Source: Dictyostelium discoideum (lineage: Eukaryota). From it: a stretch of DNA of 64,000 nt. This document shows, one piece after another, positions 5,788-48,681 of this stretch (position 1 is its first letter; every line of letters begins with the position of its first letter). The stretch lies in assembly GCA_000004695.1 (NCBI GenBank), contig CM000151.3, positions 6,880,001 to 6,944,000 of the forward strand. Reading direction: 5' to 3'. A program made the translations under genes and the position numbers. The notes under the pieces are model-generated. The model made no database searches. It had not been told where the DNA came from and saw nothing but the letters and a program-made list of their open reading frames with translations.

Positions 5788-6475
5788 ATGGAAAATACAG
5801 ACCATTCTTATAATCAACAACCTGTAAATAATAATGATGTTAGGGATTTATTATTTGAAAATTCACCACTCGACCAATATCTTCAATGTAAATTATTATC
5901 AATCATTAATTAATTACACTATTTAATGATAAATTAAAAAAAAAATAAAAAAATAAAAAAATAAAAAAAAATACAACTTATTAATAAAGTTTTATATTTA
6001 TACTTAAATAGCATTAAATTTAAAAGAAAATGAAGATAATAGAGGTGAAGTTTTATCATTTGAAATGTTTAGTCAAGAGAATATTGAAAATAATGAAGAA
6101 TATAATCAAATAAAATATGATAATAACAATAATAATGAAAAAAATAACGATAATAATAATACTTTTAAAAATAAAAATAATAAAAATAACAACATCAAAC
6201 TAAATAAAATTCAAATATTCTTCATGTCATTATACCAATCTATATCATCAATTATAATTGAATCAGATATTCTATTAGTACAAGAGTCACCATTTATCCA
6301 AAATCCTAATTTATCATTAAAAGATAATGATGATAATGATGATGATGAATCACCATTACCACCAATATATCCATTATCATTATACACCTTAGATAATGAT
6401 AACATATCAAATAATAATAATAATAATAAAGAATTATCATTAAATATTATTGAATTAATATCAATATTATATAAC

Positions 6476-6511
<36 letters not shown>

Positions 6512-8462
6512 TATATAATTATATTGATATCAATTTTAATTTTAATAATATCAATATTTTTAAATTTTAAATTAATAATTTTTATATTTTCAATATCATT
6601 AATAGTGATTATATTAATATTGAAAATTATAAATTCAAAGATTAAAGAGATTCAAAGAAATATTAAATCATTAGAAAAAGTTAATTTAGAATTAATTGAT
6701 GCTTGTAAGAATCATTATAATCAAATTAGTAAAACTATACAATTAATTAGAGAAGTTGAATTAATATCAAGAGGTTATAGATTATCAACACCAATAACTC
6801 CAATTGAAAGAATTGAACAATCCAATAATAGTGGTAATGGTACTAGCAATAGTTATAAATCTGAAAAATCATTTATTTTAAGAGCAAGTGTTTCAAAATC
6901 ATTAAAAACATTTATAATTTTATTTAAAAATTTAATTGAAAATCAAGCAATTTCTTTAAATTTACTTGAAAATCAAAAACAATTTATTAAATGTCAATTA
7001 TCAGAACTTTTCAATTCAAATAATAATAATAATAATATTGATGATGATGATGATGATGATGATATTAACACAAAAGAAAATCAAGAAGAAATAGAATTAG
7101 ATCAATTAGAAAATGATTCACAATTACCAATTGTAACATTAAAATTAATGTTACATCAATATGAATTCATGGTTTCAAATTTCTTTACTTTATTTATTAT
7201 ATCATTTTCAAATTTATTAAATAATAATAATAATTTTAATAGAAGTGATGGTATTATTACTACTAGTAACCTCTTTAATTTTTCAAATATAAATAATAAC
7301 ATTTGCCAATTTCAATCAATTCTATTAAAAATTTCAAATAGATTAACGATTGAAAATAATTCAATTAAATCTTTAATTTCAAAAGAATTATGGGAAAATA
7401 GTATAATATCATCATCATTATTGTTATTTCATTCCCCTAGTACAAAAAAAAAAAAAAAAAAAAAAAAAATACCTTTTACTAACTATTATCATTATTTTTT
7501 CATTTTTTAATTTAGAAATTCCAAAAAGAGTTATATTATCAAAACCAAAGAAAACAACTATTGAATCATTTATATATAATACTAATCAAATAGCAGAATC
7601 ATTAAATAGCATTAGTCCATTATTTACAAGTTTACTTGAAAAAATAGTTCCCTTAAAACAAAATAATAATCAAAATAATAATCAAAATAATAATAATAAT
7701 AACAACAATAATAATAGTGATTATGAATCATCATCATCATCATCATCTATAACAATACTTGATATTTTAAAATTAGATGAAGTTGTAAATGACTTTTTAT
7801 TAATTAAAAATGAATTAACAAACTCATTAAAGAATTGGGATAATGCAAATAGATCTTTAGTAAAGATGGTTAGAACTATACCAACAACAAATCCAAATTT
7901 ACAAAAAGAATGGACTGAACAAGAAGCAACTGAAAAATTAAAAAAACTATTAGAAAAATTAAGATCCAATCATTTTAATAATAATGATGATCATGATGAT
8001 CATGACGATGATGATCCTAATAATCAAAGACGACAAAAACAAAATGAATTAAATAAATTAATGACTTCAACTACAACAATCAATGAAAATCAATGGTTAA
8101 TTTATGAAGATACTGGTGACCTTGATCCAACATATATTGAAAGACCTCTAATTCAAATTAATGAAAATACAAATAGTGAACTATCAAATACAAATAATGA
8201 AACAACAACAATAATAATAACAAAACCACCCCCACCTCCACCACCAATGGGATTACCAAGAAGAACCAAACCTCCAAAAAGGACAATGTATGATCCTGAT
8301 TTTGATCCAATAACTCAAAAAATGAAAATATCTTCTGAAACTAGTACTCAAAATAATAATAAAAATAGTATTGCTGCTTCAATAATTCCACAAAAGAAAT
8401 TAATGAATGAACTTAAAACTGTTTTAGATATTCATGTCCTAAAAAAGAATATGCCAACTTAA
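5788..8462 (+). CDS. hypothetical protein with poly-N/D tracts, one strongly hydrophobic transmembrane segment, coiled-coil-like segments and a C-terminal PPPPPPP motif; join(5788..5887,6012..7439,7516..8462)
   Basis: Three ORF pieces join with consistent phase. Intron 1 runs GTAAAT (5888) to AG (6010-6011). Intron 2 runs GTACAA (7440) to TTTAATTTAG (7515) and contains a TACTAAC-like branch motif. The hydrophobic stretch is IIILISILILIISIFLNFKLIIFIFSISLIVIILIL. No homologue recognised. Confidence 0.5.
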
Positions 8463-16380: not shown

Positions 16381-17085
16381 ATGGAGACTAAATTAAATTT
16401 TGATGAAGCTATAAATAAAATTGACAAGATATTGAAACTTGGTCAACTTTTTAATGTAGTCGGAGGAGATATCTTTTTCTGTATTTGTAGTACTAGTAAT
16501 TCCGATGTAAATAATATTGATAAACAAGAAAATAATGATAACGGTAATAGTGATAATAAATTTGATGAGCAAGTATGCAAACGTTTTGAAAATAATTTTA
16601 ATACCAGATTTACAAATATGGTAATCAATATAAAAACTAAACCAGTTAGAGTTGAATTTATTGGTAATTGTGATTCAAAATCAACCGAATTAGAAATAAT
16701 TAAATATTATCGTTCAAATCCAAATTTTATTAATTTAGTAGATTATGAAAATAATAGTTCAACCTCTTCAAATGAAAATAATAGATATATTCATATTCGT
16801 CTTTATTCATTACCAAAAGAATGGTCAATGACATATGTTTGTGAAAAATCTTTTGAACATTCCCATACCCACACTCATGAACAAGGTCATGGTCATCATC
16901 ACAATCACCATCATAATCAGAATGATCATCACCATCACCACCATAATGATCTTGACCCTTCCCATCACCATCACCACCACCATGAGGATGATCATTCTCA
17001 TGAACATGGACATTCCCACTCTCATACTCACACCCATACTCACCCAGGCTCAGAAGAAACCTATCAATGTATGAATTTCCATTGA
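16381..17085 (+). CDS. hypothetical 234-aa protein with a C-terminal histidine-rich (HxH/HHHHHH) tail; single exon
   Basis: Uninterrupted ORF. The C-terminal 80 aa read EHSHTHTHEQGHGHHHNHHHNQNDHHHHHHNDLDPSHHHHHHHEDDHSHEHGHSHSHTHTHTHP. The N-terminal 150 aa are ordinary composition (METKLNFDEAINKIDKILKLGQLFNVVGGDIFFCICS...). No homologue recognised. Confidence 0.5.
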   Translation: METKLNFDEAINKIDKILKLGQLFNVVGGDIFFCICSTSNSDVNNIDKQENNDNGNSDNKFDEQVCKRFENNFNTRFTNMVINIKTKPVRVEFIGNCDSKSTELEIIKYYRSNPNFINLVDYENNSSTSSNENNRYIHIRLYSLPKEWSMTYVCEKSFEHSHTHTHEQGHGHHHNHHHNQNDHHHHHHNDLDPSHHHHHHHEDDHSHEHGHSHSHTHTHTHPGSEETYQCMNFH

Positions 17086-17933: not shown

Positions 17934-20900
17934 ATGAATAATGAATATAATGAATTATTATTTTGGAAAGTTTTTAAAAATAATTATTTATTAAATTGTA
18001 TATTAAAAAATAAATGTTGTTATAAAAGTAAAAAATTTAAAACTATTACATCAATAGATTCAATGTTAAAACATAAACAATATCAACTGTTGATATGTAA
18101 ATTAAAAGCAGATGAAAATTTGTATTTTAAAGGAAAATATGGAAATGATGAGATCATTAATAGAATAGAAGATATAGAAGTATTCAAAGAGATATATTCA
18201 TTATTACTCTTTAAAGGTTATCAAGATACTAGGGATCATCGTATTTTATTCGATAGTATTTGGGGTATAAAATCAGTAGATTTATTTGATTTTCATTTAA
18301 AATATCATCCAGAAGAATTACAAACCCATATTACAACATCCATATACTCAATCTTGGTATATAATCATCCAAAATTAATAATAAAGGTTTTAAATTTTTT
18401 TAAAGAGTCCATCAATCATAATAAACCAATAACTTTAACCAAAAATGAAAGAAATTATTTCATTATGGAATATTTATATTATTGTAGATATGGAAGAAAT
18501 ATTGAAGAATTGAAAGAAAAGATGAAAATGATATGGAATATTCCAATATCGTCAACCTCAATATTTCATAATTCAGAAAAAAGAGTTCCAAGTGCGAATG
18601 TAGGTTGTTTTCTAAAATATCAAAAATTATTACCTTTTGGATTTAATAATATTCAAACATCATTTGATTGCTCTAAAGAAAATCCAAGGAGTTATTCTTC
18701 TATTGGTGATAGGCGGGGAGATGAAAATAATCAACGTTCTGTTTATAGCATAAATCATTTAAATATGTTTTCAAGTTTTTGTTATGACTTTGATGATAGT
18801 ATTTGCGAGTACATAAAAGATGTTAAAGGAAATTTTGAGTGTATCTCTTCATCTATCAAATCAGTTTTATTATATTTTAAATTGTATTATTGCAACTATG
18901 ATTATAAAAGTAAATCAAAAAGTATACCAACATCGATTCAAACTCAAATTGATATAATAATTGAAAATAGTAAACATAGACGTTGTACTGTATATCAATC
19001 AATTAAACAATTATTTCAACTATTAGCCATTGAATCAAAATCAATTGTTTTATATGCATTTTATTTAAAAGAATATAATGAACCAATTGATACCATTGAA
19101 CTTAGTGAAGAAATTCAATTATTGTTAATATATTACATGATAAAAACCTATAACACCAATATATTAAAGTTTCTATTGAAAAAACATTTAAAAATCAAAT
19201 TAACAAAATTAGATTTGGACTATATTGGTGAATCATATCTCAAATTTTTATTTAAAAGTAAACAAATTAATAAAAACAATATTATTATGTTCTACAAAAA
19301 CTACACATCACAAAAATCAATCATTATAGAAGATTTAGATGAAAAACCACTAGATGATGCAATATCAACAAAGGAACTTATTGATTTGGACAATAAACGA
19401 TTACATTCAATTCTAGGTAATGAATCATCATCGAAATGGAAAGAAATTACATCAAATATAATTGATAATGATATGATTGTTACAATTAAAGATAAAGAAA
19501 CAATCGATTGGTTATCAGATATAGAAACAGGTGGTGGTTGTAGTATTTTAAAAATAAGAGATGCTTTAAATTCAAAATTAAAACAAATGAAACTTGATTT
19601 TAGTACATTGGAATTATTAGAATATGCAAGAATCAAATTTAAACAAGTAATTCCAATTTTAGATTTAAATAAAGAGTTGTGTAATATCCACATTTTACGT
19701 ACTCATGATGATATTGAATCATTAATCAATCGTTTAAACCAATCAAACTTTAATAACAATGAAAATTTATTTAAATATTATATGATTCAAATAATTCAAT
19801 TTGGTTCAAGAAATTCAATGAAATACCTAAGATTAATTTGTGATTCTATTGACGAGTTATTAATGGACTATGAAGGTTGGGTAATTTTAGATGACACTTT
19901 AAGAAGGTTTTATATTAACTCATACCTAATAGAAGGAGAGATATGGGACAATTCAGTAGGTTATCATGAAAATAAAAAGTTCAAAGAATACAAAATACCA
20001 ACTCAACAAACATGTCAAATAATCAATCTCACCAAAATTAAAGTCAATTTCAATCACTTTCCAAATGTAACTTCTTATTTATTACAAACATTTATCGAAC
20101 TTTTAAATTTTGAAGGTGTTCAGTTTATTCTTGATAATTTAAATGGTAAAAATTTAAAATTAAATGAAAAAGCATTTAAAGATCGTTTTCATGATAGAAT
20201 CTATACATGCAAATATTTATATAAAGATTTGATTGAAATGATTCAATTTTTAATTAATAAATTCAAAGATGGTCAATTATCATTATCAAATTTATCATTG
20301 ATATTAAATTTCTTATTTTCAATGTTAATTAGAGTCAATGATTTAACAAATGATCAAATCAAAACAGCTTATCAATCAATATCAAACTATATTGAAATAG
20401 ATAGTTCAGAACTCAATTCATACTATTATTTAAAAACATTATCACCCATTATTTCATCATGTATTATCATTTTTAGAGATAATGGTGGTGGTGATGTTAG
20501 ACCATTACTTGAATATCATATAGATACATCAGTATATACATTCGAACATATATTTACAAATAGAAATAATAACGATCTGAACCAATTTATCGATTCAACA
20601 ATCATGGATATTGTAAAAGATCGTTTTTATTCTAATTTAAACAAAATGTTAGATAACAATAATCCAAGAATTAATTTATTTTTACATTATTTCGAAATTC
20701 AATTAAAATACAAAAATGAAAATGATTTCAAAGGACCATTTTTAAATTATAAACTATTGAAATTAATAATTAAAACATTTGATTTAGAATCATTTATTAA
20801 ATTAGATAGTTTATTAGAGAACCATAATGGTAATTGTGAGCAAGAGGGTTCAAATAACAGGATTTTAAGCGAATTAGAGAAATTTTATTTTAATTGGAAA

Positions 20901-22781
20901 AAACCATTATCATCTAATATGGTTGAATGGTTTGGTATAATTGTATACAAAGATTATTCAGATTATCAAGATATTATAAATTACTTATTTAATAAATATA
21001 AACACCAATTGGAACCATATATAATTTACTATAAATTAAAAATAAATAATAAATCAATAACTAATAATCAGTTACATTCAATTTTATGTAATAAATCATC
21101 ATCGAAATGGAAAGAAATTACATCGAATCTAATTGGTAAGGCCGCTGCTACAATTAAAGATAAAGAAACAATCGATTGGTTATCAGATATAGAAACAGGT
21201 GGTTGTAGTAATTTAAAAATAAGAGATGCTTTACATTCAAGATTAAATCATATGGAACTTGATTTTAGTTCATTGGAATTATTAGAGTATGCAAGAATCA
21301 AATTTAAACAAATCATTTCAATTTTCGATTTATGTGATGAGTTTTTCGAAATTCATATTTTACATACTCATGATGAAATTGAATCATTAATCAATCGTTT
21401 AAACCAATCAAACTTTAATGAAAATGAAGATTTATTTAAAAATTATATGATTCAAATAATTGAATTTGGTTCAAGACTTTCAGCTAAACACATAAGATCA
21501 ATCTTTAAATCATTGGAATATGGCGTTGACAAGTCATCATTGGGAAATGATAATTATAAAGAGTGGAAGTATTTAATAAACAAAGTTTTCAAATACGAGT
21601 ATAGAAGGTTTTTTGATAACCCCTCATACATCCATGAAGAATATTTTTTGGGCCAAATACTACGTGATCATAAAAACGAAGAATACAAAGAATACAATAT
21701 ACCAACTCGACAAGAATCTCAAATAATCAATCTTTCTAAAATTAAAGTCAATTTCAATCACTTTGCAAATGTAACTTCTTATTTATTTCAAGGATCCATC
21801 GAACTTTTAAATTTTGAAGGTGTTCAATTTATTCTTGATAATTTAAATGGTAAAGATTTAAAATTAAATGAAAAAGCATTTAAAGATCATTTTCATGATA
21901 GAATCTATTCATGCGAATATGTTTCTAAAGATTTATATGATACCATTCAATTTTTAATTGAAAAATTCGAAGATGGTCAATTATCACTATCAAATCTATC
22001 ATTGATATTAAATTACTTATTTTCCAAGTTAATTAGAGTCAATGATTTAACAATTGATCAAATCAACATATCTCATCAATTAATATCAAACTATATTGAA
22101 ATAGATAGTTCAAAATACAATTCATACTATTATTTAAAAATATTATCACCAATTATTGAATCATGTATTACCGTTATCGAAGGTCCTACAAGTGATGATG
22201 AAGATGGTAATGGAAAACCAAGACCATTCTGTCATTATGATATAGATACATCAGTATATACATTCGAACACATATTTACAAATAGAAATAATAACGATCA
22301 GAACCAATTTATCGATTCAACAATCATGGATATTGTAAAAGATAATTTTACAATTGAAATATTTTCCAAAATGTTAGATAATAATAATCCAAGAATTAAT
22401 TTATTTTTACATTATTTCGAAATGGAATTAAAAAAAAGAAAAACAAGTAATGATTTCGAAAATGTATTTTTAGAATTTGAACAATTGAAATTAATAATTA
22501 AAACATTTGATTTAGAATCATTTATTAAATTTGAATATTTATTACAACAATATCAATTCTACTTATCACCTGATATCGATGAATGGTCAGATATAAACAA
22601 AGAGTATGCAAATGATCAAGAGGATATAAATGATGGGTACGTCAAACCATTATCATCTAATTTGGTTGAATGGTTTGGTAAAATTTCATTCATATATTAT
22701 CCAGATTATCCAGATATTCTTAATTACTTATTTGATAAATATAAAAACCAATTCGAACCATATACTAATTATATAAATTAA
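17934..22781 (+). CDS. large lineage-specific hypothetical protein, 1615 aa, single exon, built from an N-terminal unique region plus two tandem ~555-aa internal repeats
   Basis: Continuous ORF. Repeat 1 is about 19400-21070 (HSILGNESSSKWKEITSN...KPLSSNMVEWFGII...). Repeat 2 is about 21070-22740 (HSILCNKSSSKWKEITSN...KPLSSNLVEWFGKI...). The two share roughly 75-80% amino-acid identity. No known domain recognised. Confidence 0.75.
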   Translation: MNNEYNELLFWKVFKNNYLLNCILKNKCCYKSKKFKTITSIDSMLKHKQYQLLICKLKADENLYFKGKYGNDEIINRIEDIEVFKEIYSLLLFKGYQDTRDHRILFDSIWGIKSVDLFDFHLKYHPEELQTHITTSIYSILVYNHPKLIIKVLNFFKESINHNKPITLTKNERNYFIMEYLYYCRYGRNIEELKEKMKMIWNIPISSTSIFHNSEKRVPSANVGCFLKYQKLLPFGFNNIQTSFDCSKENPRSYSSIGDRRGDENNQRSVYSINHLNMFSSFCYDFDDSICEYIKDVKGNFECISSSIKSVLLYFKLYYCNYDYKSKSKSIPTSIQTQIDIIIENSKHRRCTVYQSIKQLFQLLAIESKSIVLYAFYLKEYNEPIDTIELSEEIQLLLIYYMIKTYNTNILKFLLKKHLKIKLTKLDLDYIGESYLKFLFKSKQINKNNIIMFYKNYTSQKSIIIEDLDEKPLDDAISTKELIDLDNKRLHSILGNESSSKWKEITSNIIDNDMIVTIKDKETIDWLSDIETGGGCSILKIRDALNSKLKQMKLDFSTLELLEYARIKFKQVIPILDLNKELCNIHILRTHDDIESLINRLNQSNFNNNENLFKYYMIQIIQFGSRNSMKYLRLICDSIDELLMDYEGWVILDDTLRRFYINSYLIEGEIWDNSVGYHENKKFKEYKIPTQQTCQIINLTKIKVNFNHFPNVTSYLLQTFIELLNFEGVQFILDNLNGKNLKLNEKAFKDRFHDRIYTCKYLYKDLIEMIQFLINKFKDGQLSLSNLSLILNFLFSMLIRVNDLTNDQIKTAYQSISNYIEIDSSELNSYYYLKTLSPIISSCIIIFRDNGGGDVRPLLEYHIDTSVYTFEHIFTNRNNNDLNQFIDSTIMDIVKDRFYSNLNKMLDNNNPRINLFLHYFEIQLKYKNENDFKGPFLNYKLLKLIIKTFDLESFIKLDSLLENHNGNCEQEGSNNRILSELEKFYFNWKKPLSSNMVEWFGIIVYKDYSDYQDIINYLFNKYKHQLEPYIIYYKLKINNKSITNNQLHSILCNKSSSKWKEITSNLIGKAAATIKDKETIDWLSDIETGGCSNLKIRDALHSRLNHMELDFSSLELLEYARIKFKQIISIFDLCDEFFEIHILHTHDEIESLINRLNQSNFNENEDLFKNYMIQIIEFGSRLSAKHIRSIFKSLEYGVDKSSLGNDNYKEWKYLINKVFKYEYRRFFDNPSYIHEEYFLGQILRDHKNEEYKEYNIPTRQESQIINLSKIKVNFNHFANVTSYLFQGSIELLNFEGVQFILDNLNGKDLKLNEKAFKDHFHDRIYSCEYVSKDLYDTIQFLIEKFEDGQLSLSNLSLILNYLFSKLIRVNDLTIDQINISHQLISNYIEIDSSKYNSYYYLKILSPIIESCITVIEGPTSDDEDGNGKPRPFCHYDIDTSVYTFEHIFTNRNNNDQNQFIDSTIMDIVKDNFTIEIFSKMLDNNNPRINLFLHYFEMELKKRKTSNDFENVFLEFEQLKLIIKTFDLESFIKFEYLLQQYQFYLSPDIDEWSDINKEYANDQEDINDGYVKPLSSNLVEWFGKISFIYYPDYPDILNYLFDKYKNQFEPYTNYIN

Positions 22782-39394: not shown

Positions 39395-40610
39395 TTAACC
39401 AACAATTTCAAATTCTGAAATTGATAAAGCTAAAGATCTTTGATTCTCTAATTCTGAAGTTATTGGTTGTTCAACTATTATATTTAAATTATTATCATCA
39501 TCATTATTCTTATTACTACTAAATAATGAATCCCATTTAAAAAATGACCAATATGAACTTTTATTATTGTTATTATTATTATTACTATTTACATTTACAT
39601 TTATTATATCATTTTCATTAATAAGATACTTTGGTTGTTGTTGTAGTTGTTGTTGTTGTAGTTGCAGTTGTTGTTGCAGTTGTTGTTCGATTAATTTATT
39701 TTTTTTACCAATAAAACCACCATGTAATGATTGAAAATCGGTTAATAATTTTAAAATATTTTGATTTTTAGTTCTACTGATTGTATGTTGTGAAAAACCT
39801 TCAGTTCTATTTTGACAAAGAAATTTTACAATTTCATAATGACCATTTTCAACAGCCATTGAAATTGCATTTTTTGTACAACCCTCTGCTCTATTCTCAT
39901 GTAAAAACTTAACTACTTCTAAATGACCATATTGGGCTGACAAATCCATTGCATTAACAGTTGCACCTTCTTTTCTATTTTCATGTAAAAATTTTAAAAT
40001 CTCTAAATCACCATGACGTGCACTTAAATCAATTGATGATGTTGATGCATATCCTCTTTTATTATTATTATTATCATTGTTTTTAATTTTATTATTACTA
40101 TTTTCAATTTCATGTAAATATTTAACTTTTTCAAGGTCTCTTGAATCTACTGCATTGTCCAACACGAAAAACATTTTCTCCATTTCATCTCTTTTTAATG
40201 TGAATAATATTTTAAATAATTCACTATTATCTTTAAAACTAATCATTTTAAATATTAATCTATATGAACGAGTTGAAAAATCTAATTTAATTGTTGAATT
40301 ATTATTATTATAGTTTTTAAAAACTTTATCTTTTAATAATCCAATATTTTCACTTAAAATCATTGATTCAACAGATGTATAATCTTGATATTTCTTAAAT
40401 TGATAATTTCTATCAATGAATGTTATTTTATCTTTTTCCAAATTAATTTTATTGATTTCTTCTATTTTATTAATATTGCTTCTAGATTTCTTATTTTTAA
40501 TAGTCGATAATAAACAATTCCAATTTGAATTTTCACTTTTTAAAAATGTTGATATTATATTCCATAAATATTTATTACGAAAAACATAATAAAATAAATA
40601 ATCATTTGTA

Positions 40611-40669
<59 letters not shown>

Positions 40670-40681
40670 GATCATTGTCAT
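39395..40681 (-). CDS. ankyrin-repeat-containing protein, 428 aa, with a poly-N N-terminus and a poly-Q segment; single exon
   Basis: It has at least three ~33-aa repeats: HGDLEILKFLHENRKEGATVNAMDLSAQYG / HLEVVKFLHENRAEGCTKNAISMAVENG / HYEIVKFLCQNRTEGFSQHTIS. Confidence 0.7.
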
Positions 40682-40699
40682 ATTATAATAATAATAAAG

Positions 40700-40732
<33 letters not shown>

Positions 40733-40875
40733 TTTTTAAAATAAAAAAAATAACTATATTTTAAAAAAAACTATAAAGTAAATTATTTATTATTTTTTAT
40801 TTATTTTTTTAATAATTTATTATAAATGAGTTGTTTTTTTTTTTTATACATTTTTTTTCTGATTTATTTTTAATT

Positions 40876-40921
<46 letters not shown>

Positions 40922-41073
40922 AAAATTTTTAGATTAACCAGAATGTGGTGGTTTGCACCACACCTCAAAAACAGCTGTGCAAATAAATGTGTTAAATAAT
41001 TAATAGAGAAAAATAAATTTGACTCATCTATTTTTTATTTAAATTAAAGGTAAGAATAAATAAATAAATAAAT

Positions 41074-41114
<41 letters not shown>

Positions 41115-41389
41115 TATTTGGTATATTCTAGTTGATTTTTCTTTTTTTTTTTTTTTTTTTCTATTATTTGGTGTATGGAAAAAAAAAAAATCATATCCAG
41201 ATTTTTTTTTTTTTTTCTAATAAAAATATTTTTTGATCAGTAGATTTCTTTTTTTTTTCTTTCCTTTCGGAGTTTTTACTTTTTTTTATTTTTTTTTATT
41301 TTTTTTTTTTTTTTTTTATATTTTTTTTTTTTATTTTTTTTTTTTATTTTCTATATTTTATATTTGTTTCATTAATCTTTGTATTATTT

Positions 41390-43158
41390 CTTAATTTGGA
41401 TTTATCTAAAAAATGAGTCGTCGTATGGGAGGAGGTATGCCAAAGATAAACTTATGTTTGTATCAAAGAATTATTGTAAAAAAAATAAAAAAAAATAAAT
41501 AAATAAAATTAATTAATAAATTAATTATTTACTTTAAAATTTTTTAGCTGGCGCTATTCCAAATAATAATACATCAACACCATCAACACCAACTTTAAGA
41601 AGTTCAGTATCTGTATCATCAAGCAACAGCAGAGGTTTATTTTTAGCCTAGATTTTTTTTTAAAAAAAAAAAAAAGTAAAATAAAATAGTCACTTGACTG
41701 TTCACACAAGCTTTATTTTTCTTTATTTTTCTTTATTTTTCATTATTTCCTCATTTTTAAATTACAACAACTATATATTTTTTTTTTTTTTTTAAAATTC
41801 CTTTTTCCTAAAGCCAATGGTTATTTTTTTTTTCTGATGTAAAAGTTTTTTTTTGAACCTTTCTTGTTTGAAACGGTGAATTGATTTTTTTAATTTTTTT
41901 TTTTAATTTTATTTTTTTTTTACAAAAATATCTTTTATTATTCTTTTTTTCACTAAAATCAATTTAACCACTTTTTTTTAAATATCAATAATCATGTAAA
42001 GTTTATCATCTCTATTTAAAACAGGTAATGGTGATAACAAACTAGGAGCAGGTATGATTGTTTATTTATTTTTTATTTTATTTTTTTTATTATTTTATTG
42101 ATAAACATATAGGAAAAAAAACAATGATTAAAATTCCAACAGGAAGAAAAAATAAACAATCAGGTAAGATTTATTTTATTAATTTTAAATTTTTTTTTTT
42201 TATAAAAATATTAATTTGGATTTGTATTCAAATTAGTTACAAATGGTCAAGTTATAAATAATGTTTGTAGACGCAACAAGCTCGCCAACAGGGGGATATC
42301 ACAAACTTGGATTATCTATTTGGAAATCAAAATTCATTTTTAAAATATATTCAAAAAATGAAATTGCATGGTGGAAGATGTAAAATATTGGATAAGAATT
42401 TTTCTAATAATATTTTTTAATATTTATCCCAACAGATTTCTTTTTTTTTTTTTTCCATATTGTTTTAGTTTCATTAATCTTTGTAATATTTCTTTATTTG
42501 CATTTACCAAAAAAATGATTCATGGTGTGGAGGGGGAATGCCCAAAGATTAACTTAAGTTTGTATCAAAGAATAATTTTTTAAAAAAAAAAAAAAAAAAA
42601 AAATTATCCACTGTAAAAATTTTTAGCTGGCGCTGTTACAATTAATAAACACTACTTTAAATTCAGTATCTGTATCATTAAGCAACAGCAGAGGTTTTTT
42701 AACTTTTTTTTTTATTGTTTTTTATTTTTAGCCTAGATTTTTTAAAAAAAAAAGTAAAAAAAAAAAATAAAAAATAGTTGTTCACAAACTTTATATTTCA
42801 TTATTTGAAAATGAAAACACCAACCTTATATGTATTTATTTTTTTTTTTTTTTTAAAAAAAAATTCCTTTTTTCTAAAGCTAATGGTTGGCTATTTTTTT
42901 TTTTTTTTTTATCTTGTTAAATAGATTTTTTTTTTGTTTTTTTTTGTTTTTTTTTGTTTTTTTTTTTTTTTTTTTTTTTTTTTTGATTAAAAATATCTTT
43001 TTTTTTTTGTTTTTTTTTTTTTTTTTAATATTTTTTTTTATTATTTTTTCACTAAAACCAATCCAATCACTTTTTTTAATATCAATAATTATGGAGAGTT
43101 TATCAAGTTTATCTAAAACCGGTAATGGTAATAACAAACTAGGAGGAGGTATGATTAT

Positions 43159-43196
<38 letters not shown>

Positions 43197-44751
43197 GTGA
43201 AACTAATAAAAAAAAAAAAAAAATTAAAGTAGGATATACATTTTTACAAAAACCACAAAATGTTTCATCACCTACAGCAAGACCCTCAACTCCTCAACCA
43301 GGTGCAGGGAAAGGTATATTTTTAGCATAATCAAATAAAAATAAACAGTCAAAATTTGGGCTATTCAATCCATTACTTTATTTTTTTTATTTTTTTTTTT
43401 TTTTTATTTTTATTTTTTTTTTTTTTTTTTTTGATTACCCCATTTGATTTCTTATTTTTTTCAAACTGCTCTTAAAAACCACACAACCCAAAACCTTTCG
43501 GCAAAATAAATTAAAAACAGTGTTTTTTTTTTTAAAAAGTTCTGTTTTGAAATGAAATCCAATTTTATTTTTTTATTTTTTTTGATATTATTTTGACCTT
43601 TGGATAAAATTTTTTATTTTTTTTTTTTTTTTTTTTATTTTTTTTTTTTTATTTTTTTTTTTTGTTTAATTTTTATTTTTTTTTTATTTTTTATTTTATT
43701 GTTAAAAGTATAGAAAAAAAAAAGGGATAGTGTTTGGTTAGGAGGAAAAAACAAACAATCAGGTAAGATTTATTTTTTTTTTTTTTTTTATTTTTTTTTA
43801 TTTTTTTATTTTTTTTTATTTTATTCTTAAACTTGTATTCAAATTAGTTGCAAATGGTCCAGGTAAAGCAATGTTTTTGGCACCAAATGCAACAAACTCA
43901 CCAACAGTGGGATATAGCCCAAGAATTTTAAGCTACACACCTGGATTCAAACCTTAAAAAAAATAAAAAAAAAAAAAAAAAAAAGATTTTTTAATTTAAA
44001 ATAAAATTAAACATATATAAACAATTGGGTATTTTTTTTTTTTTTTTAAAATTAAAGATATAATACTTTTTTCAACAATAACTTAATTTTGTTTGTTTTT
44101 TTTTTTAAAAAAAAAAAATTGATTATTTACTTTTTTATTTTTTTTTTTTTTGTTTTTTATTAAAAAAATAATATAACAAAATTAAATAAAGTAATTATAA
44201 CTAATAAATATTGTAAATAATTAGGTTTATTATTTATATCATTCTTTAACCAGGTGTGTATTTTTAGAAACCTGTAAATTTCCTGGTTCCCACACCATGA
44301 TAGATTTAAACTAAATTTGGGAAATAGAAAAATTGAAATTTAACGCAAATAAACAGATCAACTTTTTTATTTATTTTATTTTTTTTTTTTCAACCAACTT
44401 ACAATTTTTATAATTTTTTTTTTTTTTTTTTATTCACCCAATCATGATTACTTAAAACCTCGAAAAAAAAAACGGTATATTCCCAAATTTATTTTTTTAT
44501 TTTTTTTTTATTGTTTTTAAATTGTCTGTTTGGAAATGAAAAATCAATTTTTTTTAAAATAAAAAATAATTTAAACAATCAATTTTCAAATAATATTTTT
44601 TTTATTTTTTTTATTTTTTTTTTTTTTTTTTTTTTTTTTTGATATTTCTTGTACAAATGATATTTAATATATTTTTCTTTATCTTTCTTAATTATTTTAT
44701 TTTTTCCTAATCCAAGTGTCTGAAATATATTAAAAAAAATGAATCATGGGT

Positions 44752-44783
<32 letters not shown>

Positions 44784-45900
44784 TTGCCCCAATTTGATTC
44801 AGTTCTCCTTCATCTATTAAGTTTTGGTATTCAAAAACAAAGTTTTAAAGTATTAAAAGGAAATTTGAAAGTTTTTTTATTTCTTTCAAAATAAAATTAA
44901 TTTTTTAAAATTAAAATGGTTTTTTTTTTATAAAAAATTTTGTTTTGAACCGAAATCCAATTTTATTTTTTTATTTTTTTATTTTTTTATTATTTTTTGA
45001 TATTATTTTATTTTCGTGACTTTTGGATAAAAATTTTTTTTTTTTTTTTTTTTTTTCTTTCATTTTTAATTTTTTTTTTATTTTTAATCTTATAGGAAAA
45101 AACAATGATGATATTTGATTCTTTTTTAGGAGGAAAAAACAAACAAAGTAAGATTTATTTTTATTATTTTTTTTTAAATTTTTATTTTTTTTTATTTTTA
45201 TTTTTATATATATATATATTAATTTAAATTTGTTTTTAAATTAGCTCTAAGTGGTCCAGTTAAAACAACGTTTTTGGCACCAACCACAACAAGCTCACCA
45301 ACAGTGGGAATTGTAAATGGTACAGTTGGATTTAGACCTTAAAATAAAAAAAAAATAAAAAAAAAAAAAAAAAAACAAAAAAAAAATTTATTATTTAATT
45401 TAAAATAAATAAAAATTATAAAGCTTTTACTTTTTTGTTGAAAAAAAAAAAGAACAGTATCTTTAAAATTTTCTTCAACCAGATGTGTATTTTTAGAAAC
45501 CTTTAAATTTCCTGGTTCCCACACCATGGTAGATCTGTACAAAATTTGGAAAATGGAAAAATTAAAATTAAACACAAATAAAAAATGAATAAACAGCCAA
45601 TCTTTTTTATTGACTTAATTTTTATTTTTTTAAATTTTTTTTTTTTATTTTTGCTACCAACTGATAATTGTTTTAATTTAGTTTTTTTTAAATTTTTTTT
45701 TTTTTTTTTTTCATTCACCTCACCATGATTATTTAAAACCTCGAAAAAAAAAAAAAATGACTCTTCGGTATATTCTCAAATTTATTTTTTTATTGTTTTT
45801 AAATTGTCTGTTTAGAAACGAAAAATTAATTTTTAAAAACAATAAAAAAAAAAATCCAAGCAATCAGTTTTCGATTATAATTATTATTATTTTTTTATTT
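41390..45900 (+). repeat. tandem array of a repeated ~1.2 kb micro-exon gene unit, with about three copies in varying states of decay. Copy A is 41390-42345, copy B is 42465-44600 and copy C is 44690-45900. Each carries short exons plus conserved non-coding modules.
   Basis: Four shared modules were identified. The 5' module is 41390-41720 versus 42465-42790, and in the second copy the donor GGAGgtatgcc is mutated to GGGGgaatgcc. The MESLSSLSK exon module is 41990-42060 versus 43040-43150. The GGKNKQS micro-exon plus the terminal exon appear at 42100-42340, 43720-43960 and 45100-45345. Downstream non-coding modules are 43430-43610 versus 44790-45040, 44220-44340 versus 45450-45600, and 44430-44590 versus 45715-45880. 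Confidence 0.7.
43091..43957 (+). CDS. most intact member of the micro-exon family: a ~91-aa Gly/Ser/Pro/Thr-rich peptide; join(43091..43148,43229..43312,43742..43762,43848..43957)
   Basis: MESLSSLSKTGNGNNKLGG/G VGYTFLQKPQNVSSPTARPSTPQPGAGK/G GGKNKQS/G VANGPGKAMFLAPNATNSPTVGYSPRILSYTPGFKP*. All three introns are phase 1 and each splits a G codon (G|gtatg..., G|gtaag...). There is a 21-nt micro-exon. There is no signal peptide and no Cys. Alternative acceptors are possible. Confidence 0.35.
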
Positions 45901-46041
45901 TTTTTTTGAAATTTTTTGAAAATGACGTTTAAAATGTTTTTTATTTAAAGAATTGTTTTTTTTTTTTTTCTTTTTATTTTTATTTTTCTTTATTTTTTAA
46001 ATCATTTTTTTCTAGGCAAGTGTTTGAAATATTTTCAAAAA

Positions 46042-46243
46042 ATGCAATTACATAGTGGAAGAAATAAAACTTTGGGTAAGAATTTTTTTTTTTTTTTTTT
46101 TTTTTTTTTATTATTTCTTTTAAAATTAACATTCTAATAACCTATTAGCATCAGATTTCACTGCTAGTGGGATGTATCTTATTTCAAGACCAAAAGGTAC
46201 AGTAGGACCTCCAATTTTTAGCAACTATTCTTTTAGTTATTAA
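46042..46243 (+). CDS. second type of small two-exon ORF, 42 aa: MQLHSGRNKTLG/ASDFTASGMYLISRPKGTVGPPIFSNYSFSY; join(46042..46075,46149..46243). A decayed copy of its first exon sits at 42361-42405.
   Basis: AAAAATGCAATTACATAGTGGAAGAAATAAAACTTTGGgtaagaat compares with AAAAATGAAATTGCATGGTGGAAGATGTAAAATATTGGataagaat at 42355, where the donor is lost. The intron is phase 1. Confidence 0.25.
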
Positions 46244-47823
46244 AAACTATTCCAATCAATCAAAAAATCCTTTTTTTAAAAATTGTTAAAAGACTTAAAA
46301 AATTAAAATATTTTAATATTTTTATTAAATTAATTAGTATTCTATTTTTAACAATAGTGTATTTTTTTTTGTTCTTTTTATTTTTTTTTTTTTTTTTTTT
46401 TTTTATTTTTTTTTTTTTTTTGAACACCAGGTCGAGTTTGATTTTTAGTGGAGTTACTTTTTTTTTTAACATATCAGATTAAGATATTATCATTTTTCCA
46501 GAATTTTTAGTAGTGTTATTTTTTTCAGCATTTTTTGGCCATTGGAGAAGAGCACATTAATTCGGACAATGCTCAAATTAATTTGTATTTGTTTTATTTT
46601 CCAACCATCCTCTAATTTGAGTAGGGCAGATTTATTTTCAATCTAGAGTTTGAATGGGTTTAAACTGGATGACCATTAAACATATAGTTAAATTCCATTT
46701 ATAACTGGAAATTTTAGTTGATTTTTATGGGTTTCTTAAAAAAAAAAAAAAAAATTTTAAAAAACAAAATAAACAAATAAAAAATAAATTCAAATCCAAC
46801 TTAATTATTTTTAACTAAATTAATAAAAATGAATTTAAATAAATTGGGTCTCATAATTTTATGATTTACTATTATTTATATTATTATATCTATTCATATC
46901 TTTTTTTTAAATAAAATTATCTATTTAATTTTTATCTAATTAAATTTTCAGGTGTTATTGTTCGGGTTCAAAAATCAAAAAGTAAATATAATAAAATAAT
47001 TGGAAAAAAAAAAAAAAAAATTATAAATCAGGTTTTCTTGGAGATACTCATTTTCATTAGTTGGATGGGGTTATTATTATTTTTTTATTTCTCAGCTTTA
47101 TTTGTTCAATTTTTAATATATTGTTGCAATCAATCCATATAACCATTTATTTCAACTGCATCACAGGCAATACATAGTTGAAAAATATAATATGATGTGT
47201 TTAAATATTTTTTTTTTTTTTTCACATTAATATTTTCTTTTAAAAATAATTAAATAAAAAACTATTTTTTATACCTTAGTAGAAGTTCAAATAATTTTTT
47301 TTTTTAATGTCCATGGTTTGGGTGATATAAATTTTGGAAATAATGTATGATTTTAGGTAAGGATGAAAAGGCAAATAATCAAGTAATTTATTATTTTTTT
47401 TAAAAAATTTAATTTATTTTTTTCCAAAAATTGGCTAGCAACGATATTAAAAAAAAAAATAAAAAAAAAATAAAAAAAAAAAAAAAAATAAAAAAAAAAG
47501 ATCAGTTTCAATTGTTTAAAATATCTTAACAAAAAAAGGTGGGAAAAATTTTAAAGTGGAAAAAAAATTTTATAATAAAAAAAAACCCTTTTCTAAAATA
47601 TCTTTTTTTTTTTTTTCATAATTAAGTTTTTTAAGTGGTATTGCAATTAAAGATTGAATAATAATGCTTTTTGTTATTAATTTTTTTTTCGAGTTCAATG
47701 ATTTTTTTGCAAACATCAATCAATGGAATTCGGTTTTCTTTATTATTATTATTATTTTTTTTTTTTTTATTAATCTTTTTTTTTTTTAATTTTTTTTTTT
47801 TCTAAGTTTTTTTTTTTTTTTAT

Positions 47824-47854
<31 letters not shown>

Positions 47855-47900
47855 ATTATTAGTTAATTATTCCTTAATAAATAAAACAAGTCTTAAAAAA

Positions 47901-48681
47901 ATGAATAAAATTTTATCATTATTTTTAATAACCATATTATTAATTTCAAAAGTTATGTCATCAAGCGAAGAATGTAAACTTTGTACTGATTTTATGTATG
48001 ACTCATTAAATGAACTTATTGAAATTGCCATTAGTATGTTTATAAATATATAAATTAATTATTTAATTCCCTATTTATTTTTTTTATTTACTAATTTAAA
48101 TTTTTTTTTTTTAATAATAAATAAAATAATAATATTAAATTTTAGATGGTGGAGTTATTGGTAGTTGTGGTGCTCTTTGTAATAAATTAGGTATTGCTCC
48201 TTTATGTATGGTATGTGCTATTGCCTGTGATGCAGTTGGAATTAATGGTTTTATGGATTTATTACAAGATGTTTTCCCAGATCCAATTTACATTTGTGAA
48301 AGTGTTAAAATGTGTCAATACAATGATAAAGCAAATGCAACTATTACTGAAGTTGTAATTAATCCAATGAGTGGAAATGTAGGTGACACTTTCAAAATTG
48401 GTGTATCATTTAATGTAACCAACACTATTGCAACTGGAGAAATTTTATGGAATGTTGTTGACCCAAGAGGTTTCCAATTTGGTGAAACTGAAGTTATAAT
48501 TGATGCTGCTCCTTCAATTTACGGTGCCGCTTTCAGTTTCCAAGCAACTCCTTCTGAACAAGAAGAATTCCCACCAGGTGAATACCAATTACAAATGCAA
48601 ATTTGTGAAGGTACCTGCGGTTCACCACATCCACATTCTTATATTTTATCAAATCAATATTTAAATTTCACCATTATATAA
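47901..48681 (+). CDS. secreted saposin-like (SAPLIP/amoebapore-like, countin-like) domain protein; join(47901..48033,48146..48681)
   Basis: MNKILSLFLITILLISKVMS is a signal peptide. It is followed by CKLCTDFMYDSLNELIEIAIS/NGGVIGSCGALCNKLGIAPLCMVCAIACDAVGINGFMDLLQDVFPDPIYICESVKMC, which has the six-Cys saposin-like spacing. A ~110-aa C-terminal domain with an additional CEGTC follows. The intron runs GTATGT to ATTTTAG. Confidence 0.65.

Follow-up and report, generated by a model that had tools for sequence, protein, structure and literature searches.

A tandem cluster of probable two-exon mini-genes, intact and decayed, between an ankyrin-repeat gene and a saposin-like gene of Dictyostelium discoideum

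We analyzed a 64-kb stretch of Dictyostelium discoideum DNA (hereafter the window, whose positions are used throughout unless another locus is named). The window has ~20% G+C, and its open reading frame (ORF) at 16381-17085 is identical to DDB_G0276557 of strain AX4 (chromosome 2). An ankyrin-repeat gene at 39395-40681 (minus strand) and a saposin-like gene at 47901-48681 (plus strand) bound a 7.2-kb interval, in which an array of very small genes occupies 41170-46243 (~5 kb). The original prediction for this locus, a tandem array of micro-exon units, had ended it at 45900; the array in fact continues to 46243 and takes in an intact member, Z3, beyond that point. The tandemly duplicated cluster, with its intact and decayed members, is real, and we consider it likely that these are lineage-restricted two-exon genes for micro-proteins. 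For comparison we used the loci of D. discoideum strains ACTFIT (L001) and ACTFIW (L002), and of D. firmibasis (L003).

Repeats were detected by dust-masked self-BLASTN with default scoring; a generic repeat finder and permissive BLAST gave output dominated by poly-T and poly-A. This self-comparison, a check that the original prediction had itself proposed, recovered duplicated modules far above chance. Module X1 (41334-42065) matches X2 (42438-43162) at 68% identity (E = 3e-89), W2 plus Y2 (43507-44021) matches W3 plus Y3 (44906-45422) at 73% (E = 9e-84), and V2 (44242-44785) matches V3 (45471-46112) at 69% (E = 2e-80). The three Y copies align over 42058-42299 (Y1), 43658-43915 (Y2), and 45040-45309 (Y3), with E = 2e-35 for Y1 against Y2 and a further 4e-25, and Z1 (42339-42427) aligns with Z3 (46023-46111) at 79% (E = 8e-15). 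Head-to-tail duplication, as first proposed, is thus well founded. The three copies of ~1.2 kb envisaged at the time are instead a first unit of ~1.1 kb (a1, b1, Y1, Z1), a second of ~2.3 kb (a2, b2, W2, Y2, V2, Z2), and a partial third of ~1.5 kb (W3, Y3, V3, Z3), with start-to-start spacings of 1097 to 2381 bp. BLASTN and tblastn found no further copy of the modules outside the array, either in the window or in 42 kb of the ACTFIW and D. firmibasis loci.

Gene models were built from alignments of the modules and by enumerating ATG, donor, and acceptor combinations. Eleven models share one layout: an ATG exon of 34-64 nucleotides (nt), then one intron, in phase 1 and 73-114 nt long, and a last exon of 95-110 nt; their products are 42-53 amino acids (aa) long. 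The G+C-richer, exon-like islands of 34-110 nt that had been described, in intact and decayed copies, are therefore present. Four types can be distinguished (residue at the intron between slashes, each pattern ending at the stop codon): type a, MSRRMGGGMPKINL/S/GAIP...SRGLFLA; type b, MESLSS...KLGG/V/GYTF...GAGKGIFLA; type Y, M...GGKNKQ/./..GP.K..F.AP...SP.VG...GF.P; and type Z, MQLHSGRNKTL/A/SDF...SFSY. All types have in common a Gly and a Lys, within the GG.(N/P)K motif that closes exon 1, and, at position -3 counted from the C-terminus, a Phe. Ser, Thr, Pro, and Gly abound in the terminal exon (~100 nt), which ends in G-x-F-L-A plus stop in types a and b, and in G-F-x-P plus stop in type Y. 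The models bear out two properties noted at the outset, since Cys is absent from a1, b2, Y2, Y3, and Z3 and from their orthologues, and the N-termini carry no hydrophobic stretch. AlphaFold2 assigns no secondary structure (predicted template modeling score, 0.13), and the peptides are predicted to be intrinsically disordered. One member of each type is intact (a1, b2, Y3, and, apparently, Z3), and the others (b1, a2, Y1, Y2, Z0, Z1, and Z2) are decayed.

All members lie on the plus strand. The left array junction is formed by the Z0 remnant (41170-41249), which consists of an exon-1-like piece and an intron tail, followed by "..agatttc" and poly-T. The first intact gene, a1 (41413-41651; 48 aa, MSRRMGGGMPKINLSGAIPNNNTSTPSTPTLRSSVSVSSSNSRGLFLA), has exon 1 at 41413-41455 with donor GTTTGT, a phase-1 intron of 92 nt, and exon 2 at 41548-41651. 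It is followed by b1 (41994-42051), a pseudogene reduced to its first exon, in which codon 2 is TAA and from which exon 2 has been deleted. This ATG-TAA lesion was part of the original description, which placed it at 42004; it exists, at 41994-41999. Y1 (42124-42343; exon 1 42124-42163, exon 2 42237-42343) is a pseudogene whose terminal exon is frameshifted relative to Y2 and Y3, and what had been read as a 2-nt indel between the first two terminal exons (Y1 versus Y2) is a series of eight indels. Z1 (42358-42440; exon 1 42358-42391) has lost its donor through a GT to AT change at 42392, and its exon 2 breaks off after "cagatttc" at the junction of units 1 and 2.

The second unit opens with the pseudogene a2 (42515-42736), with exon 1 at 42515-42557, where 1-nt indels compensate each other, and exon 2 at 42627-42736. 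The supposed donor loss here (gtatg to gaatg at 42528) lies inside the coding first exon. The a-type donor is GTTTGT, at 41456 and 42558, as supported by the AX4 annotation and the D. firmibasis orthologue, and it is still present in a2. Nor is the lesion near 42640 a 34-nt deletion: 16+1+3 = 20 nt were lost and 26 nt gained, which puts the middle of exon 2 out of frame. The intact b2 (43091-43330; 52 aa, MESLSSLSKTGNGNNKLGGVGYTFLQKPQNVSSPTARPSTPQPGAGKGIFLA) has exon 1 at 43091-43148, a phase-1 intron of 81 nt, and exon 2 at 43230-43330. Upstream of Y2 lies the non-coding module W2 (43507-43657), which contains TGTTTTGAAATGAAA and a CA-rich stretch. Y2 (43723-43957; exon 1 43723-43762, exon 2 43848-43957) carries AGG in place of ATG in AX4 and ACTFIT but is otherwise open in both, and it is intact in ACTFIW (MDSVWSGGKNKQS...GFNP). 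Between Y2 and Z2 is the non-coding module V2 (44242-44700), and Z2 itself (44739-44760) is a remnant of a Z-type first exon, ATGAATCATGGGTCAGATTT followed by poly-T.

In the partial third unit, the second W copy (W3, 44906-45040) precedes the intact Y3 (45105-45342; 46 aa, MMIFDSFLGGKNKQTLSGPVKTTFLAPTTTSSPTVGIVNGTVGFRP; exon 1 45105-45147, phase-1 intron of 97 nt, exon 2 45245-45342), and the second V copy (V3, 45471-46020) precedes Z3. This last is a putative intact, unannotated mini-gene (46042-46243; 42 aa, MQLHSGRNKTLASDFTASGMYLISRPKGTVGPPIFSNYSFSY), with exon 1 at 46042-46075, donor GTAAG, a phase-1 intron of 73 nt, and exon 2 at 46149-46243.

A short element of 22-26 nt, ATAGYCA...TTGGGCT.TTCA, lies ~15-55 nt 3' of the stop codon in every a- or b-type copy of both species. 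It occurs after a1 (41686-41707, ATAGTCACTTGACTGTTCACAC) and b2 (43345-43367, ACAGTCAAAATTTGGGCTATTCA), at ~6026-6047 and 7412-7434 of the ACTFIW locus, and on the minus strand after both mini-genes of D. firmibasis. Its flanks are otherwise unalignable between the species. The element can form a 4-bp stem, AGYC/GRCT, with T-A, T-G, and C-G variants, and the copy after b2 differs by one base between AX4 (ACAG) and ACTFIW (ATAG). A regular-expression search for the b-type element matched nowhere else in ~106 kb.

The best-conserved core of module V (44246-44305 and 45475-45535) is an inverted pair, GGTGTG and CACACC separated by 31 nt, the sole such pair in the window against 0.04 expected. We take this pair to be a candidate site that a developmental transcription factor may bind. 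A compact relative, TGTGGTG-GTTTG-CACCACA, lies upstream of the array (40945-40965), and ACTFIW keeps a version of it with a larger loop. The G-box/CA-rich hexamer is enriched (12 matches against 4.2 expected), and half of the matches fall within 40.9-45.6 kb. The upstream motif TGTTTNGAAANGAAA showed no enrichment in the window beyond its duplicated copies. One minus-strand ORF, in block 1 of module V (MVWEPGNL...), was discarded because ACTFIW has lost its ATG.

Part of the array is already annotated. A protein search with the family alignment returned three AX4 proteins and one D. firmibasis protein. The first, DDB_G0276433 (XP_643132.1, 48 aa), is exactly a1. DDB_G0276505 (XP_643133, 66 aa) corresponds to b2 except for its N-terminus (MKTPTLYLMIFFLFFF), the two being common from ...SLSSLSK to GIFLA plus stop, and the C-terminal 46 residues of DDB_G0276507 (XP_643134, 93 aa), a three-exon model, are Y3; both models end at the same stop codons as b2 and Y3. 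The extra 5' exon of DDB_G0276507 (44739-44871) begins at the Z2 remnant, which supplies its start codon, and a poly-T run within it is translated as FFFFFFFF. In ACTFIW this Z2-derived extension contains an in-frame TGA and the 46-aa Y3 core has its own ATG, and thus the extension is not conserved. Poly-Phe extensions are present at the N-termini of both DDB_G0276505 and DDB_G0276507. Judging from the aligned sequences, the annotated N-terminus of DDB_G0276505 is also doubtful, because the ATG of b2 is kept in ACTFIW (MESLSS) and is matched by the D. firmibasis start (MSFESLS).

The order of the accessions, which run consecutively, suggests no other AX4 annotation between the three genes. Z3, Y1, Y2, a2, and chimeric models were absent from the protein collections searched. 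The family had originally been described as unrecognized. It indeed belongs to no named Dictyostelium family, although three of its members are already hypothetical proteins (XP_643132 to XP_643134). A word-indexed protein search returned nothing for concatenated peptides, even though 33 consecutive residues of that query matched an annotated AX4 protein exactly; the alignment query found this protein. Word-indexed null results on short, low-complexity peptides are unreliable.

Comparison among strains shows which members persist. The ACTFIT locus is 99.4% identical to the window and has the same structure, with an identical Z3. In ACTFIW, where the gap between the flanking genes is 5.1 kb, identity is ~78-88% (BLAST of the gap). 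This strain has a1, a2, b2, Y3, b1 with the same ATG-TAA lesion, and Y2, whose ATG (AGG in AX4) is intact. Its b2 carries an in-frame 6-nt deletion and its Y3 two in-frame 3-nt indels, and its a2 has decayed further: a stop interrupts exon 1, and the donor is damaged. Y1/Z1, V2/Z2, most of V3 (only the first ~120 nt are left), and Z3 are missing from ACTFIW. The absence of Y1/Z1 reflects deletion, because the Z1 intron tail remains.

In D. firmibasis, an a-then-b gene pair lies divergent from the 5' end of the ankyrin-repeat gene, as in AX4, with phase-1 introns at the homologous place. The a-type gene (MQRQGGGLPKQNF/V/SSVP...NTRGVFLA plus stop) is unannotated. The b-type gene is annotated as RB653_002761 (53 aa; MSFESLSYNNKFGGGQNKSGP/A/LGV...GGKGAFLV plus stop). 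The D. firmibasis annotation was produced by MAKER, which was given genome-guided Trinity transcripts together with the proteome of D. discoideum as evidence (PMC11193728), and because Trinity transcripts entered that run, the spliced model of RB653_002761 probably has transcript support. The remaining intergenic DNA is unalignable between D. discoideum and D. firmibasis. Relative to the neighboring RasGAP and saposin-like genes, the ankyrin-repeat gene (L003 7813-9315; window 39395-40681) is inverted in D. firmibasis, and the mini-genes have moved with it, still divergent from its 5' end.

The comparison of loci thus shows the a and b genes to predate the split between D. discoideum and D. 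firmibasis. Types Y and Z and the tandem amplification are seen in D. discoideum only. The family had been called young, which fits types Y and Z and the amplification but not the older a and b genes. A profile search of 1.84 billion representative proteins, a library that includes these AX4 proteins, returned the four input proteins (E < 1e-10) and two long low-complexity proteins (E ~5e-4), and Pfam gave no match at E <= 10. In these comparisons the genes are seen as a lineage-restricted orphan family with one locus in each of two sister species.

Several lines of evidence indicate that the intact members are probably coding genes. Start, stop, and intron position are kept in the a and b genes of D. 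firmibasis and in a1, b2, Y2, and Y3 of ACTFIW. Across four orthologous AX4/ACTFIW pairs there are three indels in 588 exon nt, all net in-frame, whereas the introns and 200-nt flanks (~1790 nt together) hold 72 indel events. When neutral substitutions were simulated in the numbers observed, a1, b2, and Y3 all remained intact with P = 0.009-0.018 between AX4 and ACTFIW, and each D. discoideum/D. firmibasis pair, with ~50 substitutions per gene, remained intact with P = 0.004-0.01. ORF retention is non-neutral, although the ratio of nonsynonymous to synonymous substitution rates (dN/dS) is ~1.

Codon usage was scored with a frame-specific model trained on the long genes of the window, which classified 85-96% of held-out 45-codon pieces correctly. 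With this model, the proposed frame of every intact gene model scores between +0.31 and +0.75 nats/codon (for example, +0.59 for a1, +0.56 for b2, +0.31 for Y3, and +0.39 for the unannotated Z3), and both other frames score negatively; the frameshifted Y1 scores +0.03. The decayed paralogues b1, a2, Y1, and Z1, with stops, frameshifts, or a lost donor, serve as an internal control, and b1 and a2 are decayed in both AX4 and ACTFIW.

Other observations weigh against this interpretation. The pooled dN/dS comes to 0.98 among D. discoideum lineages, and the comparison with D. firmibasis gives 0.66-0.71, from small counts and with dS near saturation; these values do not establish purifying selection on amino acids. 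Substitution identity is 91% in exons and 94% in introns, and the scarcity of exon indels may partly reflect a lack of homopolymer runs. Z3 has no orthologue, being absent from both the ACTFIW and the D. firmibasis locus, and homology between the a/b and Y types is weak (hhalign P = 0.005, probability 7%). The ACTFIT and ACTFIW strain annotations call no gene in the interval, and DDB_G0276433, DDB_G0276505, and DDB_G0276507 are named in no searched paper text or supplement. A literature search on Dictyostelium orphan and de novo genes likewise returned nothing relevant.

The ORFs could accordingly be something other than functional coding genes, either exons of non-coding transcripts or proto-genes whose products are irrelevant, a possibility raised earlier for hssA. 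The dN/dS near 1, the lack of homologues beyond the sister species, the disorder and low complexity of the peptides, and their omission from the newer annotations would all fit, and a frame-shifted hssA is reported to remain active (PMC6198379). We nevertheless regard this possibility as unlikely. Start, stop, and frame survive ~50 substitutions per gene between the species, all exon indels are net in-frame, and the N- and C-terminal motifs are conserved. Moreover, the intact copies show frame-specific D. discoideum codon usage that is gone in the frameshifted Y1. Frame retention and codon bias together are hard to reconcile with a function at the RNA level or with non-functional ORFs.

Modules W and V were also considered as small non-coding RNA genes marked by the promoter motif DUSE, for which the consensus is WCCCAYAA. 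No exact match to this consensus occurs within 41170-46243, and Rfam gave no match at E <= 5 in 40000-48000. DUSE lies ~60 nt upstream of Dictyostelium small non-coding RNA genes, such as those of Class I RNA (PMC7919456). With no exact DUSE in the array and no Rfam match, this reading of W and V was rejected. A DUSE-like ACCCATAA is present at 46725-46732 (minus strand), the sole one in the gene-free gap, in a region that is largely deleted in ACTFIW, and nothing recognizable lies ~60 nt downstream of it.

We consider it very unlikely that each ~1.2-kb unit is, as originally proposed, one gene whose micro-exons of 20-110 nt are joined into peptides of up to ~95 aa. All introns are in phase 1, so that exon-skipping chimeras stay in frame: exon 1 of b2, with or without exon 2, can be joined to exon 2 of Y2 to give 83 or 55 aa. 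Y2 lacks its own ATG in AX4, and the AX4 model DDB_G0276507 does have three exons. However, joining b2 to the first exon of Y2 creates an in-frame stop with all available AG acceptors, and the ~95-aa product fails since every AG acceptor before its supposed third exon has this effect. The internal donor that the chained gene would use (43314) falls in conserved C-terminal codons, GKGIFLA plus stop at the end of DDB_G0276505 and GKGAFLV plus stop in D. firmibasis. Y1, Y3, and the Y2 of ACTFIW have their own ATG at the homologous position, and the 5' exon of DDB_G0276507 is translated poly-T with a stop in ACTFIW. The conserved unit is instead a two-exon gene ending, as in DDB_G0276433, in ...G-x-F-L-A plus stop. 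We favor this two-exon unit because of the AX4 annotation (DDB_G0276433 and DDB_G0276505), the D. firmibasis orthologues, and the in-frame stops in the chained model.

A variant of this idea is that the array works as a system of exon cassettes, in which read-through transcripts would splice first exons to the terminal exons of other mini-genes and yield combinatorial micro-peptides. The suggestion arises because all introns are in phase 1 and the genes, which share one orientation, lie close together. Under such a scheme the Y2 of AX4, which has lost its ATG but has an open and codon-biased terminal exon, would persist as a 3' cassette for b2. We give this only a faint chance of being correct.

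Finally, the original prediction had itself allowed that the modules might be fragments of a dispersed repeat or transposon such as TRE or DDT, to which we attach almost no credence. The region is repetitive and AT-rich and has decayed copies. Outside the array, however, neither the window nor the ACTFIW and D. firmibasis loci contain a copy of the modules; the array lies at the orthologous site in D. firmibasis as well as in all three D. discoideum strains compared; no tRNA gene, which TRE elements target, occurs in the window; and no transposon protein turned up in the profile search of 1.84 billion proteins.

We therefore return to a cluster of two-exon micro-protein genes. Splicing and translation of the intact genes would yield peptides of 42-53 aa, disordered and cytosolic, whose middle parts would evolve nearly neutrally, with selection acting on the reading frame, the splice signals, and the short terminal motifs. 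Because the middle drifts while the frame and terminal motifs stay, we suggest that the peptides would act on partner proteins through linear motifs at their ends.

The cluster would have grown from an ancestral a-then-b pair divergent from the ankyrin-repeat gene. Types Y and Z are also present in D. discoideum, and the block has been amplified in tandem there, probably by unequal crossing-over of a unit [a, b, W, Y, V, Z]. Each X module is preceded by a truncated Z ending in "(c)agatttc" plus poly-T at 41245, 42433, and 44750, and at 6453 of the ACTFIW locus. These truncated copies put the duplication junctions within the terminal exon of Z, as unequal crossing-over of such a unit would predict. 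The ATG-TAA lesion of b1 is older than the strain split because ACTFIW shares it, and the X1/X2 and Y2/Y3 duplications also predate that split because both are present in ACTFIW with common lesions (such as the b1 TAA). The Y2 and Y3 paralogues differ by a dS of ~0.15-0.22, which suffices to explain why modules W and V still align, and thus they need no function of their own. Decay has been complementary: a survives in unit 1, b in unit 2 (together with Y2 in ACTFIW), and Y and Z in unit 3. The coexistence of intact and decayed members supports the birth-and-death evolution of a tandem mini-gene family that had been proposed.

Two features elsewhere in the window deserve mention. The 1615-aa ORF at 17934-22781 (plus strand) looks internally tandem-duplicated, with long motifs such as SSKWKEITSN...IKDKETIDWLSDIETGG and NFEGVQFILDNLNGK in both halves. 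The minus strand at 47124-47171 encodes a 16-aa fragment that resembles the neighboring saposin-like protein (81% identity, E = 0.007) but runs in the opposite direction; an inverted duplication may have left it behind.

The array defines a tiny orphan family with a clear history of duplication and decay. It offers a compact case in which very short, predicted spliced genes hold their frame and terminal motifs while the rest drifts (dN/dS ~1). The analysis also corrects two AX4 gene models (the N-terminal extensions of DDB_G0276505 and DDB_G0276507), and contributes, as members not annotated before, Z3 to AX4, the a-type gene to D. firmibasis, and the whole set to the recent strain assemblies. 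In other respects this is an ordinary fast-evolving orphan cluster, and it leaves the current understanding of Dictyostelium biology unchanged.

The nearest known parallel is the hssA/7E/2C group, whose products are rich in Gly and Cys and are expressed late in development, in prestalk or cup cells. Of the ~213 bp of hssA, 13 make up exon 1, which likewise leaves phase 1, and ~200 make up exon 2; AX4 has nearly 100 such genes (PMC6198379). Like the hssA/7E/2C/sigN genes, those of the array are very small, two-exon, dictyostelid-only genes with a phase-1 intron, many paralogues, and Gly/Ser-rich products, and in both cases it is unclear whether the protein sequence matters (PMC6198379). Unlike hssA, the array has first exons of 34-64 nt (against 13) and second exons of 95-110 nt (against ~200), its intact copies are free of Cys, the profile search found no similarity, and it is a single locus with four intact members rather than nearly 100 genes. 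Exon sizes, Cys content, and sequence similarity thus all speak against membership, in agreement with the original prediction. Because of this, and because the profile search returned only the family itself and Pfam nothing, we regard the array as a separate orphan family of the same general kind as hssA.

The array also resembles generic birth-and-death clusters, in which tandem duplication is followed by pseudogenization, with presence/absence and start-codon polymorphism between strains. It differs from them in that its decay is complementary across a multi-gene unit and its genes are at the lower size limit of annotation. Lastly, the products share with smORF (small open reading frame) and orphan micro-proteins a length below 60 aa, disorder, fast evolution, under-annotation, and the lack of a homologue outside two sister species, but the genes of the array are spliced (as predicted), tandemly duplicated, and syntenic between the two species.

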